In this document: positions 1,946 through 37,248 of the stretch, piece after piece
Layout of the letters: every line of letters begins with the position of its first letter
Numbering within the stretch: the stretch's first letter is position 1
NCBI GenBank assembly: GCA_002309615.1
Contig: DBXT01000042.1
Location: forward strand, 2,154 to 66,153
Direction: 5' to 3'
Source of the DNA: Bacteroidales bacterium UBA1205
GTDB taxonomy: Bacteria > Bacteroidota > Bacteroidia > Bacteroidales > WCHB1-69
DNA length: 64,000 nt
Notes under the pieces: generated by a model
Told to the model about the DNA's origin: nothing
What the model saw: the letters and a program-made list of their open reading frames with translations, nothing else
Databases searched by the model: none
Program-made: the position numbers and the translations under genes

Positions 1946-2838
1946 CAAACAACAAAAATCCTAAACAAAGAGGTATGGGACGCGGTTTGGATGCCATATT
2001 GGGCATATCCACCCCCGACAATAGCATAGTAAGTCGGCAATCTCCAAGTAGAATCAAAGAAAATGAGTTTACCGAAATAAAAATAAGTTTGATAGATGTC
2101 AACCCATGGCAGCCGAGAAACGATTTTGAAGATGAGGCATTGCAGGAATTATGTCTCTCTATTAAAGAGCACGGGCTTATCCAACCCGTTACTGTACGCT
2201 TAGCAGAAAACGGTCGCTACCAACTCATAGCAGGAGAAAGACGTTTGAGGGCATGCAAAATGGCGGGTTTTACCACCATAGCCGCTTACATCCGCTCGGC
2301 CTCCGACATACAAATGCTGGAAATGGGACTCATAGAAAACATCCAACGCAAAGACCTTAACCCCATAGAAATTGCCTTATCGTTCCAACGACTTATAGAC
2401 GAATGCAATCTCAAACAAGAAGAGCTCTCCGCCAAAGTGGCAAAAAGCCGACCCGTGGTTACCAATTATTTACGTTTGTTAAAACTTTGCACCCCCGTGC
2501 AACAATATATATGTGAAGGTAAAATATCCATGGGACATGCCAAAACCATAGCCAGCATAGCCGATAGCGACACCCAAACGGCATTAGCCGAGAAAATAAT
2601 CAACATGGGGCTATCGGTACGACAAGCGGAAGAAATGGTAAAAAAAATCAGCACGCCCGCCGTGAAAAAGGCGAAAATAAAACTACCCGCACACTTTAAC
2701 GGTGAAGAAAAAAAATTGGCTGCAAAATACAAAACCAAAGTGAATATCAAAAGAAATATCAAAGGAAAAGGTAGCATAAATTTGCATTTTTCATCTGATA
2801 ATGAATTAGAAAGGCTATTATTACAATTAACAAAATAG
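1942..2838 (+). CDS. parB: ParB/Spo0J partition protein
   Basis: It contains the 'GLIQPVTV' and 'IAGERRLRA' ParB box motifs and an HTH region, and is translationally coupled to parA. Confidence 0.93.
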   Translation: MTNNKNPKQRGMGRGLDAILGISTPDNSIVSRQSPSRIKENEFTEIKISLIDVNPWQPRNDFEDEALQELCLSIKEHGLIQPVTVRLAENGRYQLIAGERRLRACKMAGFTTIAAYIRSASDIQMLEMGLIENIQRKDLNPIEIALSFQRLIDECNLKQEELSAKVAKSRPVVTNYLRLLKLCTPVQQYICEGKISMGHAKTIASIADSDTQTALAEKIINMGLSVRQAEEMVKKISTPAVKKAKIKLPAHFNGEEKKLAAKYKTKVNIKRNIKGKGSINLHFSSDNELERLLLQLTK

Positions 2839-2840
2839 TC

Positions 2841-3443
2841 ATGAAAAAAAGACATATCAGCCATATATTGCTTTTATGCATGCTTTGCACCAACACTATT
2901 TATGGTCAATATGCCTTTTCCTATAATGATATTACCCGCAAAAATAAAATAGACACTACAAGTATCAGCCCTCAAGAGAGAAAACATTCTCCCGTTACGG
3001 CGGGATGGATGTCGGCGGTATTGCCGGGGTTGGGACAAGGATACAATCACAAATATTGGAAAATACCCATAGTATATGCCGGTTTGGGTGCTACAGGGTT
3101 TTGTGTATATTATTTCAACAAACAATTCACGGAATTACGCACCGAATACAGGCACAGGCTCAATAACGAAACCGACGGGCTGCTGCCCAAATATGCGGAT
3201 ATGAGCGTCAGCAATATACAACTGCTGAAAGAGACGCAACAAAAAAACATGGAAATATCCATCATTGTATTGGTGGTATGGTATGCTGTGAATATAGTTG
3301 ACGCCGTAGTGGATGCACACCTGTTTACATTTGACGTGTCCGATGATTTATCACTACGTATTCAACCGGGAATCACTCCCCTTCAACCCGATTTAAAACA
3401 GCCCTTTGCCATGCCGAATATATCATTAACACTTAATTTCTAA
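2841..3443 (+). CDS. Membrane protein, DUF5683-like (conserved downstream of parB in Bacteroidota)
   Basis: It has a signal sequence plus 'SAVLPGLGQGYN..YWKIPIVYAG' and a second TM helix, and sits directly after parB. Confidence 0.6.
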   Translation: MKKRHISHILLLCMLCTNTIYGQYAFSYNDITRKNKIDTTSISPQERKHSPVTAGWMSAVLPGLGQGYNHKYWKIPIVYAGLGATGFCVYYFNKQFTELRTEYRHRLNNETDGLLPKYADMSVSNIQLLKETQQKNMEISIIVLVVWYAVNIVDAVVDAHLFTFDVSDDLSLRIQPGITPLQPDLKQPFAMPNISLTLNF

Positions 3444-3447
3444 CAAT

Positions 3448-4176
3448 ATGAAAATAGTTATATTAGGATACGGAAAAATGGGGGAACAAGTGGAAATAGC
3501 CGCCAAAACATTACATCACCAAATAGCGGCCTACATTGATTCCGAAGAAGATTGGAACAAAAACGCCGCGATTATCCCCACTGCCGATGTTGCCATAGAA
3601 TTTTCCACACCGCAAACGGTGTTGAACAATATTGACAAATGTTTACAATTACATTTACCCATAGTGGTCGGCACCACAGGATGGTATGACCAACTTGACA
3701 ACGTTCGTCAAAAATGCGAACAAATGCAGGGAAGTGTGCTCTATGCCAGCAATTTCAGCTTGGGAGTCAATCTGTTTTTTGCCCTCAATTCCGCATTGGC
3801 TCATATTATGAACGGATACAACTATGATGTAAGCATAGAAGAAATTCATCATATCAACAAAAAAGATGCCCCCAGCGGCACCGCCATCACCCTTGCCAAC
3901 GATATCATAAGCGTGATAGACAACAAAAAAACATGGATTAACGAGATGAACGACAATCCGCAAGAATTGTCCATCAAATCGCAACGTTTGAGTAATAACG
4001 TCGGCACGCATATCGTAACTTACCAATCGGATATGGATGCCATAGAAATCAAACATACCGCTTTTAATCGCAAGGGCTTTGCCATGGGCGCCGTTAAAGG
4101 GGCAGAATGGTTGTTACAACACCAAGGCTTTCATTCCATTAAAGATATGTTCAACTTTAACCAACCGACTATATGA
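3448..4176 (+). CDS. dapB: 4-hydroxy-tetrahydrodipicolinate reductase
   Basis: It has the N-terminal Rossmann motif 'KIVILGYGKMG', then 'VVGTTGW' and 'EEIHHINKKDAPSGTA', which are typical of DapB. Confidence 0.9.
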   Translation: MKIVILGYGKMGEQVEIAAKTLHHQIAAYIDSEEDWNKNAAIIPTADVAIEFSTPQTVLNNIDKCLQLHLPIVVGTTGWYDQLDNVRQKCEQMQGSVLYASNFSLGVNLFFALNSALAHIMNGYNYDVSIEEIHHINKKDAPSGTAITLANDIISVIDNKKTWINEMNDNPQELSIKSQRLSNNVGTHIVTYQSDMDAIEIKHTAFNRKGFAMGAVKGAEWLLQHQGFHSIKDMFNFNQPTI

Positions 4177-5885
4177 CTTTTAGCATAGAATTCTTAACCG
4201 TCTATTGTATTCTATATGTAATAGGAACTTTTGCCGGATTATACGGTGTGTTCCAAAAAGCGGGACGCACCCCGTGGCACGCCCTTATCCCTTTTTACAA
4301 TTTATACGCATGGCTTAAAGTGATACAACGGCCGCTATGGTGGATAATATTTTTAATTATCCCCTATTTGAATGTATTCACATTTATGCTCATGATATGG
4401 AAAACAGCCCGTATGTTTGACCACACCCGCTACATAGAGCTTATTCCGGCATTGATATTTCCTTTTGTTGCCGTGCCCTACATGGGATTTTCCAAAAAAG
4501 AAATTTTTTACCCTCGTGATAAAGTTCCCGAACACTTATTGGGCGTATGGCACACCATGCCGCTGACAAAAAAACAAAAACAAGCATCAGAACAAACACA
4601 AAAGAACGAGCTAACCATTAAAACTAAAGCCCGCAGCTGGACTGATGCCATCATCTATGCAGTGGTGGCAGCATATATCATCCGCACCTTTATGTTTGAA
4701 TTATACAAAATACCCACCTCCTCCATGGAAAGCACCCTTATGGTGGGCGATTATTTGGCGGTAAGCAAAATGGCTTACGGGCCTAAAATACCGCAAACCC
4801 CCGTTGCCGTTCCTTTTGTACACCATACTTTGCCGCTTACCAAATATCAAAAAGCTTATACCGATAAAATACAATTCCCTTTTTATCGATTCCCCGGACA
4901 TAGCCGCATACAACGTTATGACGCTGTGGTATTCAACTATCCTGACGGCGATACCGTAGCCCTGGAACGACAAAGCGAAAGTTATTATGCTATAGTAAGA
5001 CATATCAAAAACGCTTTTATGCACCCTGCCGAATATGCCGATGAATACTATTTTTGTGACGGACAATGGCACAAATATACGGAATTGCTTTACAAATACG
5101 GGGCAGATTATTATGCAGGAAAAGAATATGATGTGGTAAACAAGGAATATCATATCCGATATCGGCCTGTGGACAAACGAGAAAATTATATCAAAAGATG
5201 TGTGGGAATGCCCGGTGACACGCTGCAAATAAAACATGCCGTGCTTTATGTCAACAGCCAAAAAGCATATCAGCCCAAGCTGTCACAACTTATGTATTTG
5301 GTAGAAACCAACGGCATTAACATCAGCCCCGCCAACAGACAAAAACTTAACATTAACGAAGAAGATATGCAACAACTATCCCCTACCCTGTGGGCATATC
5401 ATCTGCATCCCGACCAAGTGGCAAAAATACGCCAATATAACAATGTAATATCCATACAACCTTATATTTACGAAGATACTGTTTATGAAGCCGACATTTT
5501 CCCGCAAAATGAGAACTTCAGATGGAATCGTGACAATATGGGGCCTATAATAGTGCCCAAAGCGGGACAAAGCATAGATATCGATATCAACAATATCTGT
5601 CTTTATACTCGCATTATCAAAAATTATGAGGGTAATACCTTGGAAATACGTAACAATAAAATATATATCAACGGAAACGAAACCAATACCTACACATTCC
5701 GTATGAACTACTATTGGATGATGGGAGACAACAGACACAATTCCGCCGATTCGCGTTATTGGGGATTTGTGCCGGAAGACCATATAGTGGGTAAAGCAAG
5801 TTTTGCATGGATGAGTTTGGATAAATTCAAAAGTTTGGGTGAAGGAAAAATCCGTTGGAACAGAATGTTTAAAAAAATACACTGA
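4173..5885 (+). CDS. lepB: Signal peptidase I (S26) with an extended N-terminal membrane domain
   Basis: It carries the catalytic Ser box 'IPTSSMESTLMVGDY', the Lys box 'YIKRCVGMPGD' and 'GDNRHNSADSRYWGFVP'. The first ~110 aa form a multi-TM region (DUF5684-like, 'PWHALIPFYNLY'). Confidence 0.9.
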   Translation: MTFSIEFLTVYCILYVIGTFAGLYGVFQKAGRTPWHALIPFYNLYAWLKVIQRPLWWIIFLIIPYLNVFTFMLMIWKTARMFDHTRYIELIPALIFPFVAVPYMGFSKKEIFYPRDKVPEHLLGVWHTMPLTKKQKQASEQTQKNELTIKTKARSWTDAIIYAVVAAYIIRTFMFELYKIPTSSMESTLMVGDYLAVSKMAYGPKIPQTPVAVPFVHHTLPLTKYQKAYTDKIQFPFYRFPGHSRIQRYDAVVFNYPDGDTVALERQSESYYAIVRHIKNAFMHPAEYADEYYFCDGQWHKYTELLYKYGADYYAGKEYDVVNKEYHIRYRPVDKRENYIKRCVGMPGDTLQIKHAVLYVNSQKAYQPKLSQLMYLVETNGINISPANRQKLNINEEDMQQLSPTLWAYHLHPDQVAKIRQYNNVISIQPYIYEDTVYEADIFPQNENFRWNRDNMGPIIVPKAGQSIDIDINNICLYTRIIKNYEGNTLEIRNNKIYINGNETNTYTFRMNYYWMMGDNRHNSADSRYWGFVPEDHIVGKASFAWMSLDKFKSLGEGKIRWNRMFKKIH

Positions 5886-5890
5886 CAACC

Positions 5891-6604
5891 ATGAAACAAT
5901 TTTTTTACATCATTACCGCCCTTTTTCTTTTTGTAGGGTTGCCTGCACAAGGACAAAACCGACAAATATTTCAAGGAACCATCTCCTATAACCTGCAAAT
6001 GTCATTCAATGACTATACCATGGAAACAAAAGCAACATGCTATTATTCCGACAAACATAGTAAAATATCTACCGATATCTATGGCGTAGGCATACAAGTG
6101 ATACGGGATTTCAACCTTGACAGTGCCACCATGCTGATGAATGTCATGGGAAAAAAAATAGCACTTCGCATCCCCAATCCACAAGAAAATGATACGGCTG
6201 AAATGAATATAGGAGAACTGCTTTCCACCGACACCCTCTGCGGCTATATCTGTCAAAAATATTCAATATTTCACGGCTCACTCACCGATTCCGCCATCTC
6301 CGCCCTGCCCTCCACCCCCTTTACGGATTTGAACATTTTGAAAAATACGGAAGTGAACATGTGGGCTAGTGTATGCCAAGATTTATCTGTCAAAAACACA
6401 CTCTTCTCCGCATTGCCCATTCCACAAAACGAGGCCATACTCCAAATGTGCATGGAACAAAACAATATAAAAATAACCATAACGGCAACCGAGGTAAAAG
6501 CAGGTAAAATATCCAATAAAGAATTTCAAATAGATAAATCATATCAATACACTACCCTGCAAAAATTGCAACAAATGCTGGATAGTAGCAATACCATGTT
6601 TTAA
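5891..6604 (+). CDS. Secreted hypothetical protein (paralog of 6694..7413)
   Basis: It has a signal peptide (FLFVGLPAQGQ) and shares 'FQG.i.Y' and 'CGY.C..Y' with the next ORF. Confidence 0.6.
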   Translation: MKQFFYIITALFLFVGLPAQGQNRQIFQGTISYNLQMSFNDYTMETKATCYYSDKHSKISTDIYGVGIQVIRDFNLDSATMLMNVMGKKIALRIPNPQENDTAEMNIGELLSTDTLCGYICQKYSIFHGSLTDSAISALPSTPFTDLNILKNTEVNMWASVCQDLSVKNTLFSALPIPQNEAILQMCMEQNNIKITITATEVKAGKISNKEFQIDKSYQYTTLQKLQQMLDSSNTMF

Positions 6605-6655
6605 AAGGAAAAATAGTCTTACAGAACCCTGGCATAAAAATTGTAAAAAAAATAG

Positions 6656-6663
6656 TACCTTTG
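6656..6663 (+). promoter_or_regulatory. -7 promoter box TACCTTTG
   Basis: TACCTTTG lies 31 nt upstream of ATG 6694. Confidence 0.5.
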
Positions 6664-6693
6664 CATCATTAATTTATTAAAATAATTACCAAA

Positions 6694-7413
6694 ATGAAAA
6701 AAATAATTTCAGTTATCGTTCTCTCCTTATGCTGCACAATGGTTATCAACACCGCAACTGCAGGAGGTAAAAAAACAAAAAGCACTGTATTTCAAGGTGA
6801 AGTAAAATATGCTATTAAATACAGTGGAGATATAGATCCTCAAAAATTAGCTCAAATGCCTACGGAATCCACCTACAAGGTAATGGGAAACAAACGCAAA
6901 ACCACTATGAATGTAGGTTTTCCTCTTCACATCATATATGATGGTGATTCTTGCAAACTCATACAATTAATAGACTATCCGGGACAACAAATGGCCATAG
7001 TAAGAGATAAAGCTTATTTTGATGAAGCCCGTGAAGGTGTAGTTTATTCCTATACTCCTACCAATGACACCAAAACCATTTGCGGCTATGTTTGCAACGG
7101 ATACAAAATCACCGTTACCAACACCGAAGAAGAAGAAAGCAGAGAAGTAGGTGTAGCTTATACCTCTACCGAATTAGTGGCAGGCACTGCCGGTAACTTT
7201 TTTGAATTACCCGGCTTGGAAGGCTTCCCGATGTATATCCAAACCACATCCGCTAACGGCACTTCCACTACCTCCGAAGTAGTATCTATTAATACCAAAG
7301 CCAAAATAAATTTGGCCGACTATTTAATACCTTCCACCTTCAAAATACTTTCCGACGAAGAAATAGAACAATTATTCGGCGGCGGCGGTAGTGACGATGA
7401 AGATGATTTTTAA
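6694..7413 (+). CDS. Secreted hypothetical protein with an acidic C-terminal tail (paralog of 5891..6604)
   Basis: It has a signal peptide, the shared motifs 'VFQGEVKY' and 'CGYVCNGYKI', and the C-terminus GGGGSDDEDDF. Confidence 0.6.
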   Translation: MKKIISVIVLSLCCTMVINTATAGGKKTKSTVFQGEVKYAIKYSGDIDPQKLAQMPTESTYKVMGNKRKTTMNVGFPLHIIYDGDSCKLIQLIDYPGQQMAIVRDKAYFDEAREGVVYSYTPTNDTKTICGYVCNGYKITVTNTEEEESREVGVAYTSTELVAGTAGNFFELPGLEGFPMYIQTTSANGTSTTSEVVSINTKAKINLADYLIPSTFKILSDEEIEQLFGGGGSDDEDDF

Positions 7414-29454: not shown

Positions 29455-31140
29455 CTAAAATCCGATATTAAAGCCTGCCATAATAGCGATAGGCAAACCG
29501 GTGGTTTTCTGCATATAAGGTGGATTGTATTTCTCCACCAATCCTTCTTCTCCTGCCGTTTTGTACCAATAGGCATGGGCATAGACAAAACTATTGTTCA
29601 TAAATTCCCATTCTACTTGCAGGGCTGCAATATGATTATAATATATAATGTTGTCCAAACATGGCAGTCCCCAAGGTTCGCCTACGCCGTAGCGATAGTC
29701 GGTGCCTTTGCGGATATAGGTATAAGACGCTTTCAAATGCAGACGTTGTACGGGACGGTATGCCAATTCGGCATAAATTTCGTCGGCATTGCTGCCCAAA
29801 TAATGACCTAGGCACACATCTCCGGAAGCAAAAGTGACAGACGGCATAAAATGTTGATATACATTGGGATGTGTGCGGGTGTATTCCAATTTTAACGAAA
29901 ACGTTTTGGGAAGGCCGCTGAAACAGGCTCCTACTTTGGTGCTGATATAATTAGATTGTTTTTGCTTGTCGAACATGCGGGTAAACGACAATTCATCTAT
30001 AAACACGGATGCATACAGATGCAGATATTTGACATTGCGGCTGCTGATGTCAAAGAACATCTGCGTGTTGTGTCCTGCCGTGTTGGAGGTGGCGTTATAA
30101 TTGTCATCCACTCCTTTGAAGAACAAAAACGGCACCACATATTGCAATTGGAAGCCCATATCGCTATAAACTATGGAATTGCCGATATTGATATATAAAT
30201 GTTTTACCGGACGGAATGTCAGCATATTGGCGGCTATCAATTTGCTTCGCATCACTTCCCGCCTGTTCCCGTTGATGGATACATACGAGGCGGCACTGTC
30301 AACGAGGTTGGAGGCCAGCCATCCGTTAAAATAGTTGTATTCAAACCATTCCACCGGAGACAATCGCAATTTAATCATCACATAGGGCAAGGTGCGTCCG
30401 GAAAGTATATTGGAGCCGTGACAGGCATTGCCCCATGCGATATTGTCTTTTATCAATGCCAGCGAACCCCATTTCCATGAAAAAGTGATGCCGCCCCGCA
30501 CATTGAAATAGTCGGTGTTGGTGGTTTGTCCTTTTAATATGGCTCCCTGCATTTGCGTCAGTTTTTCGGGGGTGCTCATCGGTTGGGACTGCGAATTGTC
30601 GGTGAAATTGGCATAAAAGCCGATATGCTTGCCTATATATCCCACCATTTCTCCTCCGCCCCAATAGCGGTACATGCGTTGTTCCTTCTGTCTGCCGGCT
30701 ACATAATATTCTATGCCCCATATCGGTTTTACCGATATTTTGAACCATTTGTTATTATAATAAAGTCCTAAAGGGTAGAGACATAAATTGACATGCTCGT
30801 TGTTTTTAAAGGCATTGATTTTATAGGCGGACTTGTCCGCATCGCGTTCCAAGTTGAATTCCAACAGGTGAAATGCCAATTCCTGCCTTTGCACTTTGTT
30901 GAGTTGCTCTTCCTGGGCTTGGACTTCCTGCAGCTTTTCTGCAACAAAGGCTCTGCTATAAGGCTTTATGGCCGTGTTGATGTCTATAAGGTGCAAACTT
31001 GCCATTTCATCCAAAAATGCATACACACTTTTATGTGATATGTGCAAAGGGTTTTCCTGGGCATGAACCGCAAATGCCACCACCGACAACAATACTATAC
31101 CTGCTATTTTGTATATAATACTCTGTTTCAAAGTTTTCAT
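29455..31140 (-). CDS. Outer-membrane beta-barrel protein, capsule-assembly Wzi-like
   Basis: The signal peptide MKTLKQSIIYKIAGIVLLSVVAFAVHAQ starts at 31140. The remainder has alternating beta-strand patterning and ends in aromatic GFNIGF. The family call is from memory of Wzi-like annotations, not from a search. Confidence 0.6.
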   Translation of the reverse strand: MKTLKQSIIYKIAGIVLLSVVAFAVHAQENPLHISHKSVYAFLDEMASLHLIDINTAIKPYSRAFVAEKLQEVQAQEEQLNKVQRQELAFHLLEFNLERDADKSAYKINAFKNNEHVNLCLYPLGLYYNNKWFKISVKPIWGIEYYVAGRQKEQRMYRYWGGGEMVGYIGKHIGFYANFTDNSQSQPMSTPEKLTQMQGAILKGQTTNTDYFNVRGGITFSWKWGSLALIKDNIAWGNACHGSNILSGRTLPYVMIKLRLSPVEWFEYNYFNGWLASNLVDSAASYVSINGNRREVMRSKLIAANMLTFRPVKHLYINIGNSIVYSDMGFQLQYVVPFLFFKGVDDNYNATSNTAGHNTQMFFDISSRNVKYLHLYASVFIDELSFTRMFDKQKQSNYISTKVGACFSGLPKTFSLKLEYTRTHPNVYQHFMPSVTFASGDVCLGHYLGSNADEIYAELAYRPVQRLHLKASYTYIRKGTDYRYGVGEPWGLPCLDNIIYYNHIAALQVEWEFMNNSFVYAHAYWYKTAGEEGLVEKYNPPYMQKTTGLPIAIMAGFNIGF

Positions 31141-31278
31141 CTTTCCACCAAGCTGATTGTGCATGACTATTGTAAAATACAAAAGTACTAAATAAATGTG
31201 AAATATAAACATTTGCAAGGAATAAATTTTTATTGACAGCTTTCGGGCGGAACTTTTATTCTGCATCAGTAAAAAAAA
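30951..31278. repeat. Direct repeat copy 1 (wzi-like 5' coding end plus its promoter/leader)
   Basis: It aligns by eye base-for-base with 32741..33068 at an offset of ~1790 bp, with roughly 80-90% identity and long identical runs such as 'gtgcatgactattgtaaaatacaaaagtactaaataaatgtgaaatat'. Confidence 0.85.
31180..31187 (-). promoter_or_regulatory. -7 promoter box (TACTTTTG on the minus strand) for the wzi-like gene
   Basis: Plus-strand CAAAAGTA lies 40 nt upstream of ATG 31140. Confidence 0.5.
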
Positions 31279-31542: not shown

Positions 31543-31574
31543 CATATTTTTTTGATTAGAATGTTTTTTTTTTG

Positions 31575-31582
31575 TACCTTTG
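31575..31582 (+). promoter_or_regulatory. -7 promoter box TACCTTTG for the ATPase gene
   Basis: TACCTTTG lies 27 nt upstream of ATG 31609. Confidence 0.5.
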
Positions 31583-31608
31583 CATCCGTATTCATCAAAT
31601 TATCTATT

Positions 31609-32739
31609 ATGGATTTACTTAACAGAACTCTTCAGCAAGTTATTGAAAATAGAATATTTAAAGGTAAAGCCATAGTGCTTGTCGGTGCGAGACAAGTTGG
31701 CAAAAGCACTCTTTTCCGTCAGATTTTATCCTCCTGTCATGATATACTGACCTTAAACTGCGACGATATAGAAACCCGCAATCTGCTTGAAAATGCCAAT
31801 TTGAGCGAATTGCAACGACTTGTCGGTTCACATACTATAGTTATGATTGATGAAGCTCAACGACTAAAAGGAGCCGGACTTACCATGAAACTTATTACCG
31901 ACAATATGCCCGATGTTCAGTTGCTCATCACAGGATCATCATCTTTTATGCTTCAAGGCAGTCTTAACGAGCCGCTTACCGGTCGCAAATTTGAATATCA
32001 TCTATTTCCATTTTCCACCCAAGAGATAAACGATAATCTCGGATATTTGCGTACCCGTCAACTGTTGGAATCCCGACTTATATTCGGCTCCTATCCGGAT
32101 GTTATTAATCATATTGCGGATAGTGCAGATATTTTATCCAACCTTTCAAGCAGTTACATGTATCAGGATTTGCTCTCATTGGAAGGAATACGCAAACCCG
32201 TGATTATTGAAAAATTGTTGATAGCCTTAGCTTTGCAATTGGGTAATGAAGTATCATACTACGAACTTTCAAAAACCGTCGGGTCGGATGTAAAAACCAT
32301 TGAGAAATATGTTGACCTGCTTGAAAAATGCTATATAATATTCCGCCTGCCCGCTCTGAATCGGAATATGCGTTCAGAACTCAAAAAAGGAAAAAAAATA
32401 TTTTTCTACGATAACGGCATCCGCAATTCCATCATACATAACCTCAATCCGCTCTCCCTACGAAACGATATAGGGGCATTGTGGGAAAATTTTATTGTAA
32501 GCGAAAGAATAAAATATAATCACTATCGCGGACATCATGTAAACTATTATTTCTGGAGAACAACCACACAACAAGAAATAGACTTTATTGAAGAAAGTGG
32601 CGGCGAATTCCAACTTTTTGAGATGAAATGGAACCCCAAGAAAACTCTTGTACAAGCTCCACGGGAATTTACAAAAGCATATGGAGAAATGCCCTTTGCA
32701 ACCATCACTCCTGACAATTACCTTGATTTTCTGACATAA
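31609..32739 (+). CDS. AAA-ATPase with a C-terminal DUF4143/PD-(D/E)xK-like domain (COG1373-type)
   Basis: Walker A 'GARQVGKST', Walker B 'VMIDEAQ', and C-terminal 'QQEIDFIEE...LFEMKW' (D..ExK-like). The start MDLLNR at 31609 lies downstream of the promoter box. Confidence 0.8.
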   Translation: MDLLNRTLQQVIENRIFKGKAIVLVGARQVGKSTLFRQILSSCHDILTLNCDDIETRNLLENANLSELQRLVGSHTIVMIDEAQRLKGAGLTMKLITDNMPDVQLLITGSSSFMLQGSLNEPLTGRKFEYHLFPFSTQEINDNLGYLRTRQLLESRLIFGSYPDVINHIADSADILSNLSSSYMYQDLLSLEGIRKPVIIEKLLIALALQLGNEVSYYELSKTVGSDVKTIEKYVDLLEKCYIIFRLPALNRNMRSELKKGKKIFFYDNGIRNSIIHNLNPLSLRNDIGALWENFIVSERIKYNHYRGHHVNYYFWRTTTQQEIDFIEESGGEFQLFEMKWNPKKTLVQAPREFTKAYGEMPFATITPDNYLDFLT

Positions 32740-32740
32740 G

Positions 32741-32930
32741 TCCTGCTGTACGGTTTGACGGCCGTATTGATGTCAATGATATGCAAGGATGCCATTTCAT
32801 CCAAAAAAGCATATACGCTTTTGTGTGTGATATGCTATGGATTTTCCCGAGCATGAACGGCACATGCCGCAACCGACAACATCACTATACCCGCAATTTT
32901 ATATATAATACTCTTTTTCAAACTTTTCAT
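32741..32930 (-). pseudogene. Truncated, stop-interrupted 5' fragment of a wzi-like gene
   Basis: It translates as MKSLKKSIIYKIAGIVMLSVAACAVHARENP*HITHKSVYAFLDEMASLHIIDINTAVKPYS, against MKTLKQSIIYKIAGIVLLSVVAFAVHAQENPLHISHKSVYAFLDEMASLHLIDINTAIKPYS in the intact gene. It has an in-frame TAG, and homology ends at the ATPase stop. Confidence 0.8.
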
Positions 32931-32969
32931 CTTTCCACCGACCTTATTGTGCATGACTATTGTAAAATA

Positions 32970-32977
32970 CAAAAGTA
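32970..32977 (-). promoter_or_regulatory. Orphan copy of the wzi-like -7 promoter box
   Basis: It has the same CAAAAGTA context as 31180-31187. It points into the pseudogene fragment and then antisense into the ATPase 3' end. Confidence 0.4.
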
Positions 32978-33159
32978 CTAAATAAATGTGAAATATGAAC
33001 ATTTGCAAGCAAGAAATTTTTGCTTGTTGATTTTTGGGTGGCACTTTTATGCTACATGAGTAAAAAATGACAGTTTATTATAGTAGCGTGCCTTCGGCAC
33101 GCGAGAGGGAGCGGAGTGTATATTCTCTCCTCCATATTGCGACCTGCGGTCTTGTATGG

Positions 33160-33192
33160 AGTTAATAAAATAGTGTGCCGGAGGCACACTAT
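33160..33192 (-). terminator. Putative terminator of the protease-RT operon
   Basis: A perfect 10 bp stem ATAGTGTGCC/GGCACACTAT (33170-33179 / 33183-33192) with loop GGA. On the minus strand it is followed by TTTATTAAC. Confidence 0.55.
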
Positions 33193-33208
33193 TTCGCTTA
33201 TCTTATTA

Positions 33209-33233
33209 ACTTCGCTTGATTCCTAATGACAAG
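33209..33233. repeat. Cassette-flanking imperfect direct repeat, copy A
   Basis: ACTTCGCTTGATTCCTAATGACAAG compares with ACTTCGCCCGATTCCCAAAGACGAAC at 36650-36675, about 19/25 identical. The preceding TTATT is also shared. Confidence 0.5.
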
Positions 33234-33309
33234 ATTTAGCAAATATTCAATCTATTCTACAATATTTTTGTTTTTAAAGTTTTTTAGAACTAAATATTAT
33301 ATACAACGA

Positions 33310-34992
33310 TCACACATATCTACTAAAGTTCTCAACTTCGTGATATTCAATATACTCAGTCAACCTATTAATTTCGTCTTCATTAATACAAGAGTTGTCC
33401 GGATTTTGAAATATATTCTTAATATCTTCTTTTAACCAATCAATGTTCCAGATACTTTCGTTTGCATTTGCAGCATATTGGCATAAAGGTTCTGAAAATT
33501 CTTTATTGCGGTTTTCTTTAATAGTCAATCTTTGTAGCCATATTTCCAAATAACCCACATTAGGTAGCTGATCAAATTTTTTCAAGATTTTCTCAATTAC
33601 TTCTTTTTTCTTATTAGTATCTGGCTCTTGTGATAAAATCTTGCTTACGATAGCAACGAATGTTTTGTATACCTTTGGATTATTGAAAGCAATATTTGTT
33701 AATATACTAATTAAGACATCTGAAGAACCGAATTCTTTATATAAATCCAATTTTTCTGTTTCTGAAATCCATTTGAAGAACAAATCCATTGATTTTTGAA
33801 CAGAACCTGAGTTCGGGTATTCTTGTGCTAATCTGTTTATACGCAACAGATGTTTCTGTAAACTATATTTGTTATCTTTTTTTTCTAAATCCTTGTAGCC
33901 ATTCGTAATATAATACAATTTGTCAGGCTTGATTGCTCCGTTTATTATATCCTGAGTTATCATTGTTTTCTGAGTGTTGAGTCTAAAATTCAAACTTGAC
34001 AAAACCTCCGTTAAGATTTTAGCAATTTTAATGACGTCCTCTTGCGAGTTTCCAAAAATGCGATAATCATCACGATAACGTAAAATTCGGTAGTCTGATA
34101 TTTTTGCCTTAAAAATCTTTTCAGATAACAACAAATCAGCATAACCCAACACTATTTCTGCAATAAAATCCATTAAAACACTGCCTTGAGGGATGCCATT
34201 AGTTTGTTGATATGACATGGATTGTATACGTGAATCAATAATATCACCTACTGTATATCGGTTCTTAACTTGTTGTAAATAAATAATAGCTTCACTACTT
34301 CCATCTAAAAATTTAGTATTACAAACACTTAGCAACTCAGCATTTAGTTCAACTTCTTTATTTTTATTTCTGTATTTATGTTTAATTTTTGCATTCTCTT
34401 TTCCACACATTGCCCATGTTATAGAGTGTGTATAAATCGATCCATAACAATCTGTTATGTCGGTTGTTATTAGATAATTGAAATTCATAGCCAACTTTAT
34501 GGATTGCTGTTCAATTTCCTCCCACCAATTTAGAATCGTATTTGTACTATTTTTCTGTTTCGACAAATTAATAATAGGTAAACTATAGCATTTAATTTTA
34601 TCGTTTTTTGCAAACTCCTGAAACCTTTCAACTATCAATGCCCAATTATCTTCTTTTGTAATTTCATTGACTAAATAAACATATAGTACTGGGTTAATAA
34701 TTTGCAAAGGACGCCACGAAAATCGTCCATCTTTATTTTGAAAGAAATGATAATTGACGTTTTCAATTGTCTTAGGTTCTACATCCAAAATATCGCTTTT
34801 TTGTGTTTTATTTTCTTTATACTTATATCTCTTGCATACAAGGAAACTTGTCAATTCGTTTAACAATTTTTGAAAATCAAAATATTTAGGCAAGCAGATA
34901 TTACAAAACGATTCTTGTCTCAAAAAAAAATGTTTTGCTTCTTCTGCTGAAGCATCAATGATAAAAGTATTCATAAATCTTTTTTCTATCAA
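33310..34992 (-). CDS. Reverse transcriptase, AbiK/Abi-P2/UG-like, with a ~215 aa helical C-terminal domain
   Basis: RT motif A is 'ITTDITDCYGSIYTHSITW' (aa 175-193), motif B 'NGIPQGSVLMDFIAEIVLG' (aa 265-283), motif C 'RYRDDYRIFG' (YRDD = nt 34066-34077) and motif D/E 'LNFRLNTQKT'. The track start at 34992 is TTG. The first ATG is at 34974 (MNTFIID). Confidence 0.85.
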   Translation of the reverse strand: MIEKRFMNTFIIDASAEEAKHFFLRQESFCNICLPKYFDFQKLLNELTSFLVCKRYKYKENKTQKSDILDVEPKTIENVNYHFFQNKDGRFSWRPLQIINPVLYVYLVNEITKEDNWALIVERFQEFAKNDKIKCYSLPIINLSKQKNSTNTILNWWEEIEQQSIKLAMNFNYLITTDITDCYGSIYTHSITWAMCGKENAKIKHKYRNKNKEVELNAELLSVCNTKFLDGSSEAIIYLQQVKNRYTVGDIIDSRIQSMSYQQTNGIPQGSVLMDFIAEIVLGYADLLLSEKIFKAKISDYRILRYRDDYRIFGNSQEDVIKIAKILTEVLSSLNFRLNTQKTMITQDIINGAIKPDKLYYITNGYKDLEKKDNKYSLQKHLLRINRLAQEYPNSGSVQKSMDLFFKWISETEKLDLYKEFGSSDVLISILTNIAFNNPKVYKTFVAIVSKILSQEPDTNKKKEVIEKILKKFDQLPNVGYLEIWLQRLTIKENRNKEFSEPLCQYAANANESIWNIDWLKEDIKNIFQNPDNSCINEDEINRLTEYIEYHEVENFSRYV

Positions 34993-34995
34993 ATA

Positions 34996-36618
34996 TTATT
35001 TCTTCAATTCTATCTCATAAAAACACCATCCACCCTCTACAGTTTCTCTTAAATTCATTTCAGTTGTAGCGAACGGAATAGGAGGAAAGTATAATGTGAA
35101 TGTTATATCTTCTCCATTAGAGAAAAAATATGTTTTTTGCGGAGCTATTGCTATTCCTTCTGCTTTTGTCATTGTATACGCTCTCCCATTAACAGATAGA
35201 TAAGTATTCTTATCAATATAGCAATAATCAGCGTAAGAATCACCTATTTTATTATTGGCAATAATCTCAACTGCTGTATATTCTTTTTTCAAAGTAACAC
35301 TTTTGATTTTTGTATTTTCTGCCGATGCCGATTTAGTTCTTACCGTGGGCCAATATATTGTATTGGAAGAATTTACATTGGGCGATACACTTCGCTCATT
35401 GTAAGATGATTGTGTTGAAGAATTAGCGGACGTTGATTGATTAGAACACTTAATCAAAAAAACAAAGTTTTTTAAACTTTTGACTTTGTCGCTTAATTTC
35501 ATTCCGGAAACTGTATTGTTTGTTGGCAGTACGGATGTTAACGATGCACTTTCCACAAGATTTCTCAACAAAGAAGTTTTAATTGCATAACCGACATTTT
35601 CCGCTCCAATATGTTTAGCATTGACAATGCCTATAAGATTGCCATTATTATCAAAGAGAGGACCACCACTATTTCCCGGCTGTACAGGTGCTGAAATTTG
35701 ATACAAAGATGCATCTCCCTGAAAACCTGTTTTGGAGCTTATCACACCTGTGGTAAGTTTTATTTCATCTCCCATGGTACTTGTCAAAGGATAACCCAAA
35801 ACAAATATTTCTTCTCCGACTTCAGATGTACTTGTTTTTATTTTGTATGGTAATGTTCCGAATCCTTTAAATCTGTTATCGTTTATTTTTAATATTGCCA
35901 AGTCATTTATTTTGTCCGTAGCTACAACTGATGCCGAATATGAAACATCAAAATTTCCGTTTACACCATTAATGTTGATAGATTTAGCATCTTCTACAAC
36001 ATGGTAATTTGTTACAATGTAACCATTGTTTAATGCAAATCCTGTTCCTGACCAATTTTCAATTTTTGACTCTTCCTCTCTTTCTTTAATTTCTCTTTCA
36101 GCTTGCCAATACATTTCTTTTGTAGGATAGGTTTTTATTAATTTATAGTGCAATATACATTTTGCTGATGCTGCAGCATCTCTTCCCATAGATTTAGCAA
36201 GAGCTTCTTTCGGTATGTTCAATTTAAAATCTAACGTTGTTCCGTTGTACAATGTAACCCATTCTTCCATAGAGTAATCCTTAAAGGTTTGTGTAAATCT
36301 ATATTGGTTAGATTCTCCGATTCTTGAAAAAATAGCTGCTCCTCCATCTTGACCTCCAATAGCATATCTATTATTGCCTATTTTTTGAATAAAAATAGTT
36401 TCAAAAGTATTATTAGGAGGGAAAGCCCTACCGAGAGCAAAAACTTGACTAGACATAGACATTTCATACACCCCTTCAATTGGATCTAATGAGCTGATAT
36501 TATTTTTGAAATATTCTTTTGCTCTAATCAGATCTGTTCTAGTTTGTCCCATTACACTTGCAACAACACACATTAAAAGTATGCACATACATAATTTGGA
36601 AATTCTATTTGTTTTCAT
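34996..36618 (-). CDS. Exported trypsin-like (S1/Trypsin_2-type) serine protease with unknown N- and C-terminal domains
   Basis: The signal peptide is MKTNRISKLCMCILLMCVVASVMGQ. The catalytic triad context is 'TNYHVV' (His206), 'INDLAILKI' (Asp239) and 'GNSGGPLF' (Ser317). An S/N/T-rich linker spans aa ~391-420. The stop lies 3 nt (TTG start) or 21 nt (ATG start) before the RT start. Confidence 0.85.
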   Translation of the reverse strand: MKTNRISKLCMCILLMCVVASVMGQTRTDLIRAKEYFKNNISSLDPIEGVYEMSMSSQVFALGRAFPPNNTFETIFIQKIGNNRYAIGGQDGGAAIFSRIGESNQYRFTQTFKDYSMEEWVTLYNGTTLDFKLNIPKEALAKSMGRDAAASAKCILHYKLIKTYPTKEMYWQAEREIKEREEESKIENWSGTGFALNNGYIVTNYHVVEDAKSININGVNGNFDVSYSASVVATDKINDLAILKINDNRFKGFGTLPYKIKTSTSEVGEEIFVLGYPLTSTMGDEIKLTTGVISSKTGFQGDASLYQISAPVQPGNSGGPLFDNNGNLIGIVNAKHIGAENVGYAIKTSLLRNLVESASLTSVLPTNNTVSGMKLSDKVKSLKNFVFLIKCSNQSTSANSSTQSSYNERSVSPNVNSSNTIYWPTVRTKSASAENTKIKSVTLKKEYTAVEIIANNKIGDSYADYCYIDKNTYLSVNGRAYTMTKAEGIAIAPQKTYFFSNGEDITFTLYFPPIPFATTEMNLRETVEGGWCFYEIELKK

Positions 36619-36649
36619 AAATCTATATTTGATATGTTAACATTTATTC

Positions 36650-36675
36650 ACTTCGCCCGATTCCCAAAGACGAAC
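36650..36675. repeat. Cassette-flanking imperfect direct repeat, copy B
   Basis: See copy A. This copy lies 31 nt upstream of the protease ATG. Confidence 0.5.
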
Positions 36676-36701
36676 AAAACAAAAAACACTCAAAACCACA
36701 T

Positions 36702-36741
36702 AAAAAAAAGCGCGGGAATCAGAACTTTTGCTCATCCCGCG
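36702..36741 (-). terminator. Intrinsic terminator/attenuator-like hairpin at the 3' end of the structured RNA
   Basis: The minus strand reads CGCGGGA-U-GAGC-AAAA-GUUC-UGA-UCCCGCG-C-UUUUUUUU. The outer stem is 7 bp, the inner stem 4 bp, and a U8 tract follows. Confidence 0.6.
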
Positions 36742-37010
36742 TACAAGGTCTTCGCATTACCTACCAACCGAGGATAAGCAATGCCGAAGCCCACGCTGTA
36801 CGTATAAACGGATTTTAGGACATCCGCTATATAAAGACGCTATTCAATAGTGCCTTTCATATACAATACCATGGACACTGATCATTGCCTTACCGTGCGG
36901 TTGGTGTAGAATTTGCGAAGTTCTGTACGCCGCAGATAAAACGTCAGTTCAACGTCTTTTCTATGTTTTGTCGTCCACCCGCAAACCCGTCAAGGCTTCG
37001 GATGTTTGAC
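36702..37010 (-). ncRNA. Candidate ~300 nt structured non-coding RNA, or structured leader of the protease-RT operon; family unknown
   Basis: No ORF is present and GC is higher than in the neighbouring DNA. It has a -7 box at its 5' side and a hairpin plus U-tract at its 3' side. Long-range complementarities are 36750-36756/36914-36920 (7 bp), 36763-36770/36898-36905 (8 bp) and 36784-36791/36994-37001 (8 bp), with several local hairpins. The 5' boundary is approximate. Confidence 0.5.
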
Positions 37011-37014
37011 ACTG

Positions 37015-37022
37015 CAAAAGTA
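37015..37022 (-). promoter_or_regulatory. -7 promoter box (TACTTTTG on the minus strand) for the structured RNA/operon
   Basis: The plus strand reads CAAAAGTA. A TTTG lies upstream on the minus strand at 37052-37049, which is longer than ideal spacing. No other TAnnTTTG was found between here and the protease ATG. Confidence 0.4.
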
Positions 37023-37080
37023 ATAAAAAAAATGATATAAAAAACCAACAAAGTCAATTTGTTGAAAAAAATATCTGCAA

Positions 37081-37181
37081 GGACGTTTCATGAAACGTCC
37101 CCACAATATCATGGTGAGTTTTCACTATAGGTGGCTTTGACAAGCTCAGCCACCCATGTAAGGACGATGTGTACATCGTCC
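37081..37181. repeat. Three GC-rich stem-loops in the divergent intergenic region
   Basis: H1 is 37081-37100, GGACGTTTCATGAAACGTCC, a perfect 20 bp palindrome. H2 is 37130-37154, GGTGGCT..AGCCACC. H3 is 37162-37181, GGACGATGTGTACATCGTCC. H1 and H3 share the frame AAGGACG-N-CGTCCC(C/G)ACA. Confidence 0.6.
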
Positions 37182-37248
37182 CGACAGGTATCTCTCCATT
37201 AAGGTATGTATTGTCCATACAAATATCGGAATATTAATAAAAAAATAC

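Follow-up and report, generated by a model that had tools for sequence, protein, structure and literature searches.

A Bacteroidales cassette with a structured leader, a predicted exported protease and an Abi-P2-family reverse transcriptase, apparently assembled by recombination

We analyzed a 64,000-nucleotide (nt) stretch of DNA from Bacteroidales bacterium UBA1205, called here the window, in which the minus strand carries, head to tail, a structured element, a gene for a trypsin-like serine protease and a gene for a reverse transcriptase (RT). An earlier note on this DNA had described the three parts and proposed that they form one dedicated system in which the RNA is a partner of the RT. 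All three parts were found where that note had placed them (Table 1), and its view of the cassette as horizontally acquired accessory DNA is supported. We favor, with some reserve, a different account, in which the locus is a mosaic accessory operon and an Abi-P2 RT, acting alone, occupies a swap-prone slot behind an exported protease in a cargo cassette. A promoter and a structured leader would head this cassette, with the exported protease next and the RT downstream of it.

Table 1. Features of the cassette and its surroundings, in window coordinates
Feature	Position	Strand	Basis or remark
-7 promoter box TACTTTTG (Bacteroidetes type), with TTTG ~20 nt upstream	37015-37022	minus	sequence read
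Structured element (leader RNA), ~300 nt	36702-37008	minus	fold; covariance model R1
Hairpin (GCGGGAU...AUUCCCGC) and T8 resembling an intrinsic terminator, closing the element on its 3' side	36702-36740	minus	sequence read
Spacer from terminator to protease start	36619-36701	minus	holds the left recombination junction
S1C (HtrA-like) serine protease, predicted exported, 540 amino acids (aa), chimeric gene	34996-36618	minus	Pfam Trypsin_2
Abi-P2-family RT	33310-34974 (ATG, 554 aa) or from 34992 (TTG, 560 aa)	minus	PADLOC, PDB
Palindromic GC-rich hairpin downstream of the RT, likely a bidirectional terminator	33168-33194	both/unstranded	terminator scan and sequence
Duplicated 5' fragment of wzi-like gene with promoter region	32734-33044	minus	288-nt direct repeat
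AAA_14/DUF4143 ATPase gene, between the two wzi 5' copies	31552-32739	plus	Pfam; PADLOC PDC-S01
Cluster of at least 3 hairpins upstream of the leader promoter	37040-37225	minus	fold z = -5.0

The cassette is compact. The protease stop codon lies 3 nt before the RT start if translation begins at TTG 34992, and 21 nt before it if translation begins at ATG 34974. The coding strand of the cassette holds no further open reading frame (ORF) of at least 50 aa, and no MBL-type gene was found beside the protease or the RT. The GC content of the cassette is 0.28-0.36, as against 0.36-0.48 in the flanks, which bears out the AT-richness reported before. A scan of 4.2 kb of the minus strand for TAnnTTTG boxes returned two only, one at the leader and one at 36409 inside the protease ORF; none stands directly before the protease start or before the RT. 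Because no promoter-like box other than that of the leader lies ahead of the whole cassette, the RT is probably co-transcribed with the protease, and the single transcription unit suggested in the earlier note, which had likewise seen no promoter box between RNA and protease, is probable. Transcription of both genes from the leader promoter would proceed by read-through of the leader terminator, and the leader could gate expression in cis. The box at 36409 has a TTTG upstream and lies ~210 nt past the protease start; it could be a chance match or an internal promoter.

The RT is assigned by homology to a named and structurally solved family, Abi-P2, of which it is a clear member. Its best PADLOC model was AbiP2 (E=3.7e-181); the runner-up, UG14, reached 2e-50 and the AbiK models E = 4e-22. 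Likewise, residues 6-515 matched the E. coli Abi-P2 structure (PDB 7R08) at E=8.1e-82. These matches support the earlier placement of the enzyme within the Abi/UG defense RTs, whereas the label given to it then, AbiK/UG-like, was too vague. The same note had called for a scan against defense and retron RT models; PADLOC returned AbiP2, and no retron RT model appeared among the 25 best PADLOC models, which comprised AbiP2, UG/DRT, AbiK and two generic RT models, one of these CRISPR-associated.

The motif A aspartate (TDITDCYGSIY) and the YRDD motif (34077-34066) align to 7R08 and are invariant in our alignment of related RTs (alignment A7). Residues 237-515 align to 7R08 residues 219-499, that is, past the palm and into the region that forms the helical domain in the solved structure. 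By alignment, Tyr31 of the window RT (codon 34884-34882; LPKYFDF) corresponds to Tyr61 of Abi-P2 (LPAYINF), and it is invariant across the 24 related RTs of alignment A7. The RT gene is under purifying selection, with a ratio of nonsynonymous to synonymous divergence (dN/dS) of 0.14-0.19 against the related loci L101 and L203 (loci used for comparison are designated by L and a number).

Tyr61 of Abi-P2 has been shown experimentally to prime DNA synthesis, and both AbiK and Abi-P2 carry out protein-primed DNA synthesis without a template (PMC9508834). Trimer formation and abortive infection are listed among the known properties of E. coli Abi-P2 and L. lactis AbiK (PMC9508834), and Abi-P2 is counted among the stand-alone multi-domain proteins in Mestre et al. 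2022 (PMC9226505). By analogy with these solved relatives, we infer that the window RT would use Tyr31 as primer and polymerize single-stranded DNA (ssDNA) without a template, leading to phage defense by abortive infection. Such an enzyme would not template on the upstream RNA, and its chemistry would not need the protease.

In its full-length homology, its YRDD palm and fingers, its priming tyrosine loop and a C-terminal helical domain that replaces the thumb, the window RT resembles the Abi-P2 of E. coli P2-like prophages, and both are set in variable, horizontally acquired DNA. It differs in its Bacteroidales host and in its setting: the prophage enzyme is encoded by a lone gene in a hotspot, whereas the window RT closes an operon that opens with the structured leader and the exported protease; moreover, the closer clade of the window RT repeatedly adjoins protease genes. 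AbiK of Lactococcus belongs to the same enzyme class and has the same presumed chemistry, but it is far more distant than Abi-P2, forms hexamers and is plasmid-borne in Firmicutes (PMC9508834).

We turn to the structured element. The ~300-nt ORF-free segment at the head of the cassette has a minimum free energy of -116.4 kcal/mol (z = -5.8), and 0 of 100 dinucleotide shuffles folded as well. The element is a divergent member of a widespread covarying family. The covariance model of that family, R1, gives a full-length match at 36947-36715 (17.4 bits, E = 0.056-0.26), and the window copy has the same nested helices and the same GCGUGGGCU apex as the family, with an apical insertion of ~70 nt. 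It is 99% identical to the copy in L101 and 69-72% identical to the copy in L008, which stands upstream of the closest relative of the protease; the gene downstream of the protease in L008 is not an RT. The terminator hairpin and T8 at the 3' end are kept in both L008 and L101, and more distant protease loci carry a shorter version of the element with motifs in common. Rfam 15 gave no gathering-threshold match in the window or in nine related loci, where lenient E-values were at chance level only, and text searches of the literature for known Bacteroides small RNAs, covering FopS and Bacteroides RNA surveys, returned no matching description. An antiterminator was considered and set aside: the apical GCGUGGG is complementary to the 3' arm of the terminator/P1 helix, both are invariant, and covariation is uninformative.

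Family copies were collected by an exact-pattern scan of IMG/VR, which gave 95 pattern matches and at least 95 loci (L108-L202). The core of the family is ~170 nt long, strand-specific and dominated by one long hairpin. Further cores lie in L012 (1362-1531), L016 (5745-5912), L018 (5803-5971), L021 (4795-4963), L026 (1338-1505), L042 (6374-6540) and L077 (3869-4042), and R1 found additional copies upstream of distant proteases in L034, L056, L063 and L074. In a consensus structure of 45 pairs built on an alignment of 28 sequences, 95.2% of cells form a standard pair, as against 34-42% in slid controls; 130 cells are changed on both sides (slid controls, 14-24), and the covariation score is 0.336 (slid controls, about 0.06). 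The two subgroups of the RNA were aligned with the covariance model.

The setting of the element is as regular as its fold. Of 68 unique loci, 66 have a TAnnTTTG box ahead of the core at a distance of 46-56 nt (mostly 50-56), compared with 7% of random windows, and the first ORF usually starts 211-223 nt from where the core begins. The gene that ends ~90 nt upstream on the same strand belongs, in 64 of 91 loci, to one relaxase-like protein family, whose member in L012 matches Pfam Mob_Pre (relaxase). The downstream genes, by contrast, fall into 37 unrelated clusters, about two-thirds of them encoding exported or membrane proteins; among the others are genes for a class A beta-lactamase, an OLD-type ATPase, a TOTE helicase, a radical SAM enzyme and a DUF6088 protein. 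Lipoproteins also occur among the cargo. None of the 95 IMG/VR loci encodes the RT or the protease. Because a relaxase gene lies upstream, the cargo falls into 37 clusters and RT and protease are absent from the 95 loci, the element is a marker of the backbone-to-cargo junction of Bacteroidales mobilizable elements and not a partner of the RT. Upstream of the window RNA no relaxase remnant was found, and copies upstream of proteases persist in other loci that have no relaxase.

In having a conserved backbone position, a backbone promoter and interchangeable accessory, defense or resistance genes, these junctions recall the defense hotspots of P2 phages and P4 satellites and the integron platform. 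They differ from both in the covarying structured core of ~170 nt at the junction. Exchange here apparently proceeds by homologous recombination in the leader/spacer and in conserved cargo domains, and integrase-attC chemistry is not evident. As side observations, the stretch from the core to the first start codon holds, in many of L108-L202 (e.g. L111, L116, L121, L125, L134 and L140), a second small hairpin whose loop is conserved and GGAACUG-like (GGUCUUU...GGAACUG...AAAGACA); it stands ~20-40 nt ahead of the start codon of the cargo. In L018-L020 (~2553-5718) the relaxase gene is reduced to its C-terminal 235 residues, 91% identical to those of L127, and an IS21-family element (rve, IstB) adjoins the shortened gene; the structured element and its cargo are intact.

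Three parts that lie head to tail, with a promoter box upstream of a strongly structured RNA, recall the class 2 UG/DRT systems and retrons, which pair an RT with an adjacent noncoding RNA (PMC9226505). A tripartite system of this kind would use the RNA as template or scaffold, as retrons, DRT2 and DRT9 do, with the protease as its effector. We consider this very improbable and close to refuted. The RT is a class 1 UG/Abi enzyme, so it is not the class 2 RT of DRT2/DRT9/UG27-type systems, and the solved members of Abi-P2 are template-independent. The RNA family occurs without an RT in at least 95 loci, ahead of 37 unrelated gene families, and a search with R1 among RT relatives at 32-64% identity found no convincing copy upstream of an RT. 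The same search gave a weak match (18 bits) in L001 (7671-7918), which lies directly downstream of an Abi-P2-like RT of 48% identity and at the head of a gene for a C5 DNA methylase; on its other side, that RT is preceded by an AbiH gene. L101 is the only RT relative with this RNA, and there five genes stand between the RNA and the protease. In addition, the nearest relatives of the RNA and the RT differ from that of the protease N terminus, so the three parts were not inherited together. The RNA-RT partnership of the earlier note is contradicted by these distributions. Retron type XI likewise has a structured RNA next to an RT with a trypsin-like protease domain, and its PADLOC RT-Protease_XI models are matched by the protease domain of the window at E = 7e-25; it is, however, an RT-protease fusion with msr/msd, whereas here the RT is not of a retron, the RNA is not retron-like and occurs without RTs, and the protease is separate and exported.

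A further question is whether the element works as RNA. It could act mainly as ssDNA, as a lagging-strand origin or priming site (ssoA- or ssi-like) or as another transfer site of MOBV elements, in which case the window copy would be a relic carried along with the cargo. We regard this as distinctly unlikely; this estimate bears on what kind of element it is and stands independently of those given to the other readings. The ssoA origins of rolling-circle Pre/Mob plasmids are orientation-specific ssDNA hairpins of ~160 nt with RSB and CS-6 motifs (PMC4598088, PMC5703833), on which RNA polymerase carries out the priming (PMC5703833). The element resembles them in its size, its strand specificity, its single long hairpin and its position past a Mob_Pre-type (MOBV) relaxase gene in most loci, and TAGCGT, the CS-6 motif, lies at the apex of a close subgroup (L012, L016, L018, L021, L077 and L008). 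Covariation, moreover, cannot separate RNA from ssDNA. Against this stands the RSB motif (TTATGCCGAGAAAATTT), whose best ungapped match of 8-11/17 is no better than that of shuffles (mean 9.7, maximum 13-14), and CS-6 is lost in distant members that keep the structure, being absent from L026, L042, L034, L056, L063, L074 and L001. The window has CAGCGT at the apical position, and its sole TAGCGT lies inside the inserted segment. With RSB at shuffle level and CS-6 not family-wide, identity with ssoA was rejected, and ssoA was kept as an analogy and a minor rival. A promoter box of the double-stranded-DNA type at a fixed distance and a near-constant ORF start fit a transcribed leader, a canonical intrinsic terminator closes the variants of the window, L008 and L101, and the copies upstream of proteases persist without a relaxase.

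The history of the cassette was read from its nearest relatives, segment by segment. The RNA (37029-36700) is 99% identical to L101 and 69% identical to L008. The signal peptide and N-domain of the protease (36618-36060) show no homology to L101 and 99.8% identity to L008. The catalytic domain (36059-35443) is about 85% identical to L101 and about 87% identical to L008. The remainder, which comprises the C-domain, the RT and the post-RT region (35442-33045), is 84-94% identical to L101, and also to L203, and has weak or no similarity to L008; within it, the protease segment 35442-34996 is 84% identical to L101/L203 and the post-RT region is 94-98% identical in L101 and L203. Homology to L101 (98%) stops at ~36651, and the last ~45 nt of the spacer are identical to L008. 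From these segment identities, the juxtaposition in the window is a three-way recombinant of recent origin, apparently put together by homologous recombination with the leader/spacer and the catalytic domain, which is conserved, as homology arms.

L101 shows a different order of genes around the same parts. Its RNA, the same as that of the window, is followed by the five genes mentioned above (four of them for exported proteins), a protease of 674 aa, the RT and an intact wzi. In L101 and L203 a full-length Caps_assemb_Wzi gene stands directly behind the RT, and the duplicated wzi 5' fragment of the window marks the spot where the RT abuts intact wzi in these related genomes.

The protease matches Pfam Trypsin_2 (E=2.7e-28), and its catalytic triad, H206, D239 and S317, does not vary across 23 sequences. 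A signal peptide (residues 1-24; 36618-36547) is followed by a beta-rich N-domain, the catalytic domain and a C-terminal beta domain. Its sequence matches in the PDB, to HtrA, DegQ, DegP and DegS and down to E = 1e-17, are to catalytic domains only. It shares with the S1C proteases HtrA, DegP and DegS the trypsin fold and the His-Asp-Ser triad but differs from them in having no PDZ domain by Pfam. The AlphaFold model is moderate (mean pLDDT 66, pTM 0.42). The family is large in Bacteroidales, with 5,909 matches at E <= 1e-10. Among the top 120 matches, full-length homologs carry a signal peptide with cleavage before an invariant Gln, and the homologs without one are N-terminally truncated gene calls. 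The signal peptide seen by the earlier note is therefore a conserved trait of the family, and because it is conserved across full-length homologs the protease is predicted to be exported.

What follows the protease varies. In L008, L012 and L016 the protease stop is followed at 2 nt by a SIR2-like gene, and in L040 at 7 nt (protease-SIR2 pairs at L008 3124-5951, L012 1563-4387, L016 5963-9096 and in L040). The SIR2-like partner has no signal peptide and matches the PADLOC SIR2 and Aga_SIR2 models down to E = 5e-15. To our knowledge, no defense system composed of an exported S1C protease and a SIR2-like gene has been described. In L018 two overlapping ORFs (53 and 374 aa) start 2 nt past the protease stop, and the protein is unrelated. 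More distant members of the protease family have no coupled gene. In a tree of catalytic domains the RT-linked and SIR2-linked proteases are interspersed; the partnered proteases form one subclade and the partner-less ones the outer branches. The SIR2 subfamily also occurs without this protease, in L223-L226, and in L224 and L225 its gene stands behind genes for DUF2971 proteins. Because related cassettes hold a SIR2-like gene in this place, and that gene is itself also found alone elsewhere, the slot behind the protease would be a docking place for self-sufficient defense genes, whether SIR2-like or RT. The dedicated three-part architecture envisaged in the earlier note gives way on two counts: the juxtaposition is a very recent recombinant, and behind relatives of the protease the slot is normally SIR2-like.

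Two further neighborhoods were seen in this survey. In L223 and L226 (2653-5239) the SIR2 gene lies 329 nt behind a gene for a cytoplasmic ClpP-like SDH-type serine protease (PF01972, E=7e-17). In L021 an ORF of 180 aa (6209-6751) starts 41 nt past the protease stop; its product has an HExxH motif (AHEVGH) and no Pfam match, and it may be a metallopeptidase-like protein.

The remaining unexplained point is that protease genes recur near this RT clade. Five independent contexts were sampled for RTs with at least 57% identity to that of the window, as plasmid and IMG/VR searches gave homologs of at most 43% only, and in all five a protease-domain gene lies nearby on the same strand. At the wzi locus (window, L101, L203) a trypsin-like protease gene is upstream of the RT, and on the P0123 contig the order is reversed, the RT being followed by a trypsin-like protease. 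An exported Asp_protease_2 protein with TPR (retropepsin-like) is encoded 36 nt after the RT in L105 (6001-9527), and the same type of Asp protease with TPR is encoded four genes downstream of the RT in L102 (2770-7912). In L205 (1-3903) a TPR-CHAT gene is upstream of the RT, which there has its own promoter box and lies 560 nt from the CHAT gene. The RTs of L102, L105, L205 and P0123 are 59-73% identical to the window RT, and the five lineages are mutually 59-64% identical. At 32-48% identity, 20 RT loci contained no homolog of the protease families tested, and two Firmicutes plasmid RT loci had no protease annotated nearby. Thus the synteny survey proposed in the earlier note came out divided: the RNA, and RT relatives below 50% identity, do not keep the company seen in the window, whereas in the closer RT clade a protease gene does recur.

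Several observations weigh against our preferred account of an RT that acts alone in a passing slot. One is the adjacency itself, in five of five contexts, set beside 1.1 Mb of comparison loci in which these protease families hardly occur. Adjacency that is kept while non-homologous proteases swap is the usual signature of functional coupling. Another is the protease-SIR2 pair, which has co-diverged to ~50% identity with a fixed 2-nt junction, more than would be looked for in a passive hotspot. Furthermore, co-transcription of protease and RT and read-through of the leader terminator are deduced from sequence. Finally, L203 and L204 encode a protease without signal peptide, N-domain, His and Asp and keep an intact RT, which we had considered as strong proof that the RT is independent; that argument was dropped because the truncated protease of L203 differs from that of L101 by a synonymous divergence (dS) of 0.005. 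The truncation is very recent and says little on long-term independence of the RT.

The same observations could point to a genuine two-gene defense module of RT and protease, in which the protease partner is swappable between catalytic classes. An equal alternative within this reading is a subclade of S1C proteases with interchangeable cytoplasmic effectors (SIR2 NADase, Abi-P2 RT and others). In either form the exported protease might sense envelope or phage events in the manner of DegS, or be a surface barrier, the RT or SIR2 protein would execute abortive infection, and the leader would be a cis-regulator only. We treat this as a possible but doubtful explanation. The adjacency extends over three protease classes and both gene orders on a base rate of about zero, junctions are tight (2-46 nt), and the co-divergence of the SIR2 pair and the single subclade of partnered proteases are both as a coupled module would have them. 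The protease domain also matches the PADLOC models of defense-associated proteases (retron XI, LmuA, Avs1b) at E = 1e-25 to 1e-6. There is a precedent in the UG9 variant with a trypsin-like protease (Mestre et al. 2022; PMC9226505), which, as considered here together with Avs1 modules, resembles the window in joining a class 1 UG/Abi RT to a trypsin-like serine protease. The UG9 protease, however, is fused to the N terminus of the RT, is cytoplasmic and has an MBL-fold hydrolase upstream, whereas here an exported protease has a gene of its own, an MBL gene is absent and the RT is of another group.

Topology stands against a coupled pair: the trypsin-like and Asp proteases have conserved cleavable signal peptides, the RT and SIR2 proteins have none, and no membrane-spanning relay is encoded. 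Abi-P2 and the SIR2 subfamily each occur alone elsewhere, and the pairing in the window is a recent chimera. The RT of L203 is intact beside a protease that has lost its signal peptide, His and Asp, and the RT of L205, with its own promoter box, is well separated from the CHAT gene. Moreover, the pattern was recognized post hoc, in a sample of no more than five independent contexts. We also think it unlikely that two broader propositions hold jointly, namely that the Bacteroidales clade of Abi-P2-like RTs (and the SIR2 subfamily with it) depends on a swappable, usually exported neighbor protease of the Ser, Asp or Cys type, and that MOBV cargo is controlled, in its expression or its exchange, by the element of ~170-300 nt acting as a riboregulator of a new class or as an ssDNA site.

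If the self-sufficient RT in a mosaic operon is the right account, the locus shows how a known single-gene defense RT is carried and expressed in gut Bacteroidales, with Abi-P2 at the distal end of a cargo operon subject to reshuffling by homologous recombination. If instead the RT or the SIR2 protein depends on the protease, the arrangement would be a new defense architecture, in which an envelope protease is coupled to a cytoplasmic abortive-infection enzyme; the adjacency in the RT clade and the SIR2 subfamily turns such coupling into a testable hypothesis. The structured element matters in its own right. It is uncurated, being neither in Rfam 15 nor described in the literature searched, it is abundant and strongly covarying at the junction of relaxase and cargo, and it precedes genes for beta-lactamase, defense and surface proteins. 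In the human gut microbiome it is a candidate for the control of cargo expression or of element transfer.

Beyond the cassette, the duplicated wzi-like fragment and the AAA-ATPase/DUF4143 gene reported before are both real. The wzi 5' duplicate spans 288 nt at 84% identity (30944-31231 vs 32734-33021). These direct repeats had been thought to bracket the cassette of RNA, protease and RT; they bracket the DUF4143 ATPase gene instead. Because a repeat of the wzi promoter and 5' end brackets this gene, the arrangement suggests that the ATPase gene arrived by recombination with another wzi copy. Its product matches Pfam DUF4143 (E=1.8e-40) and AAA_14 (E=6.9e-29) and PADLOC PDC-S01 (E=4.2e-155), a candidate single-gene defense family. 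The cassette in L008 and that on the P0123 contig likewise have neighboring genes with the AAA_14/DUF4143 domain pair.

On the other side of the cassette, the hairpin cluster lies between coaE and the leader promoter. The minus strand has no upstream gene for these hairpins to terminate, and the cluster has no homology in L008 and lies outside the unit shared with that locus. Its last hairpin (37106-37075) is terminator-like, and the cluster matches L101 at 88% over 37113-37030 only, where the L101 locus sequence ends.

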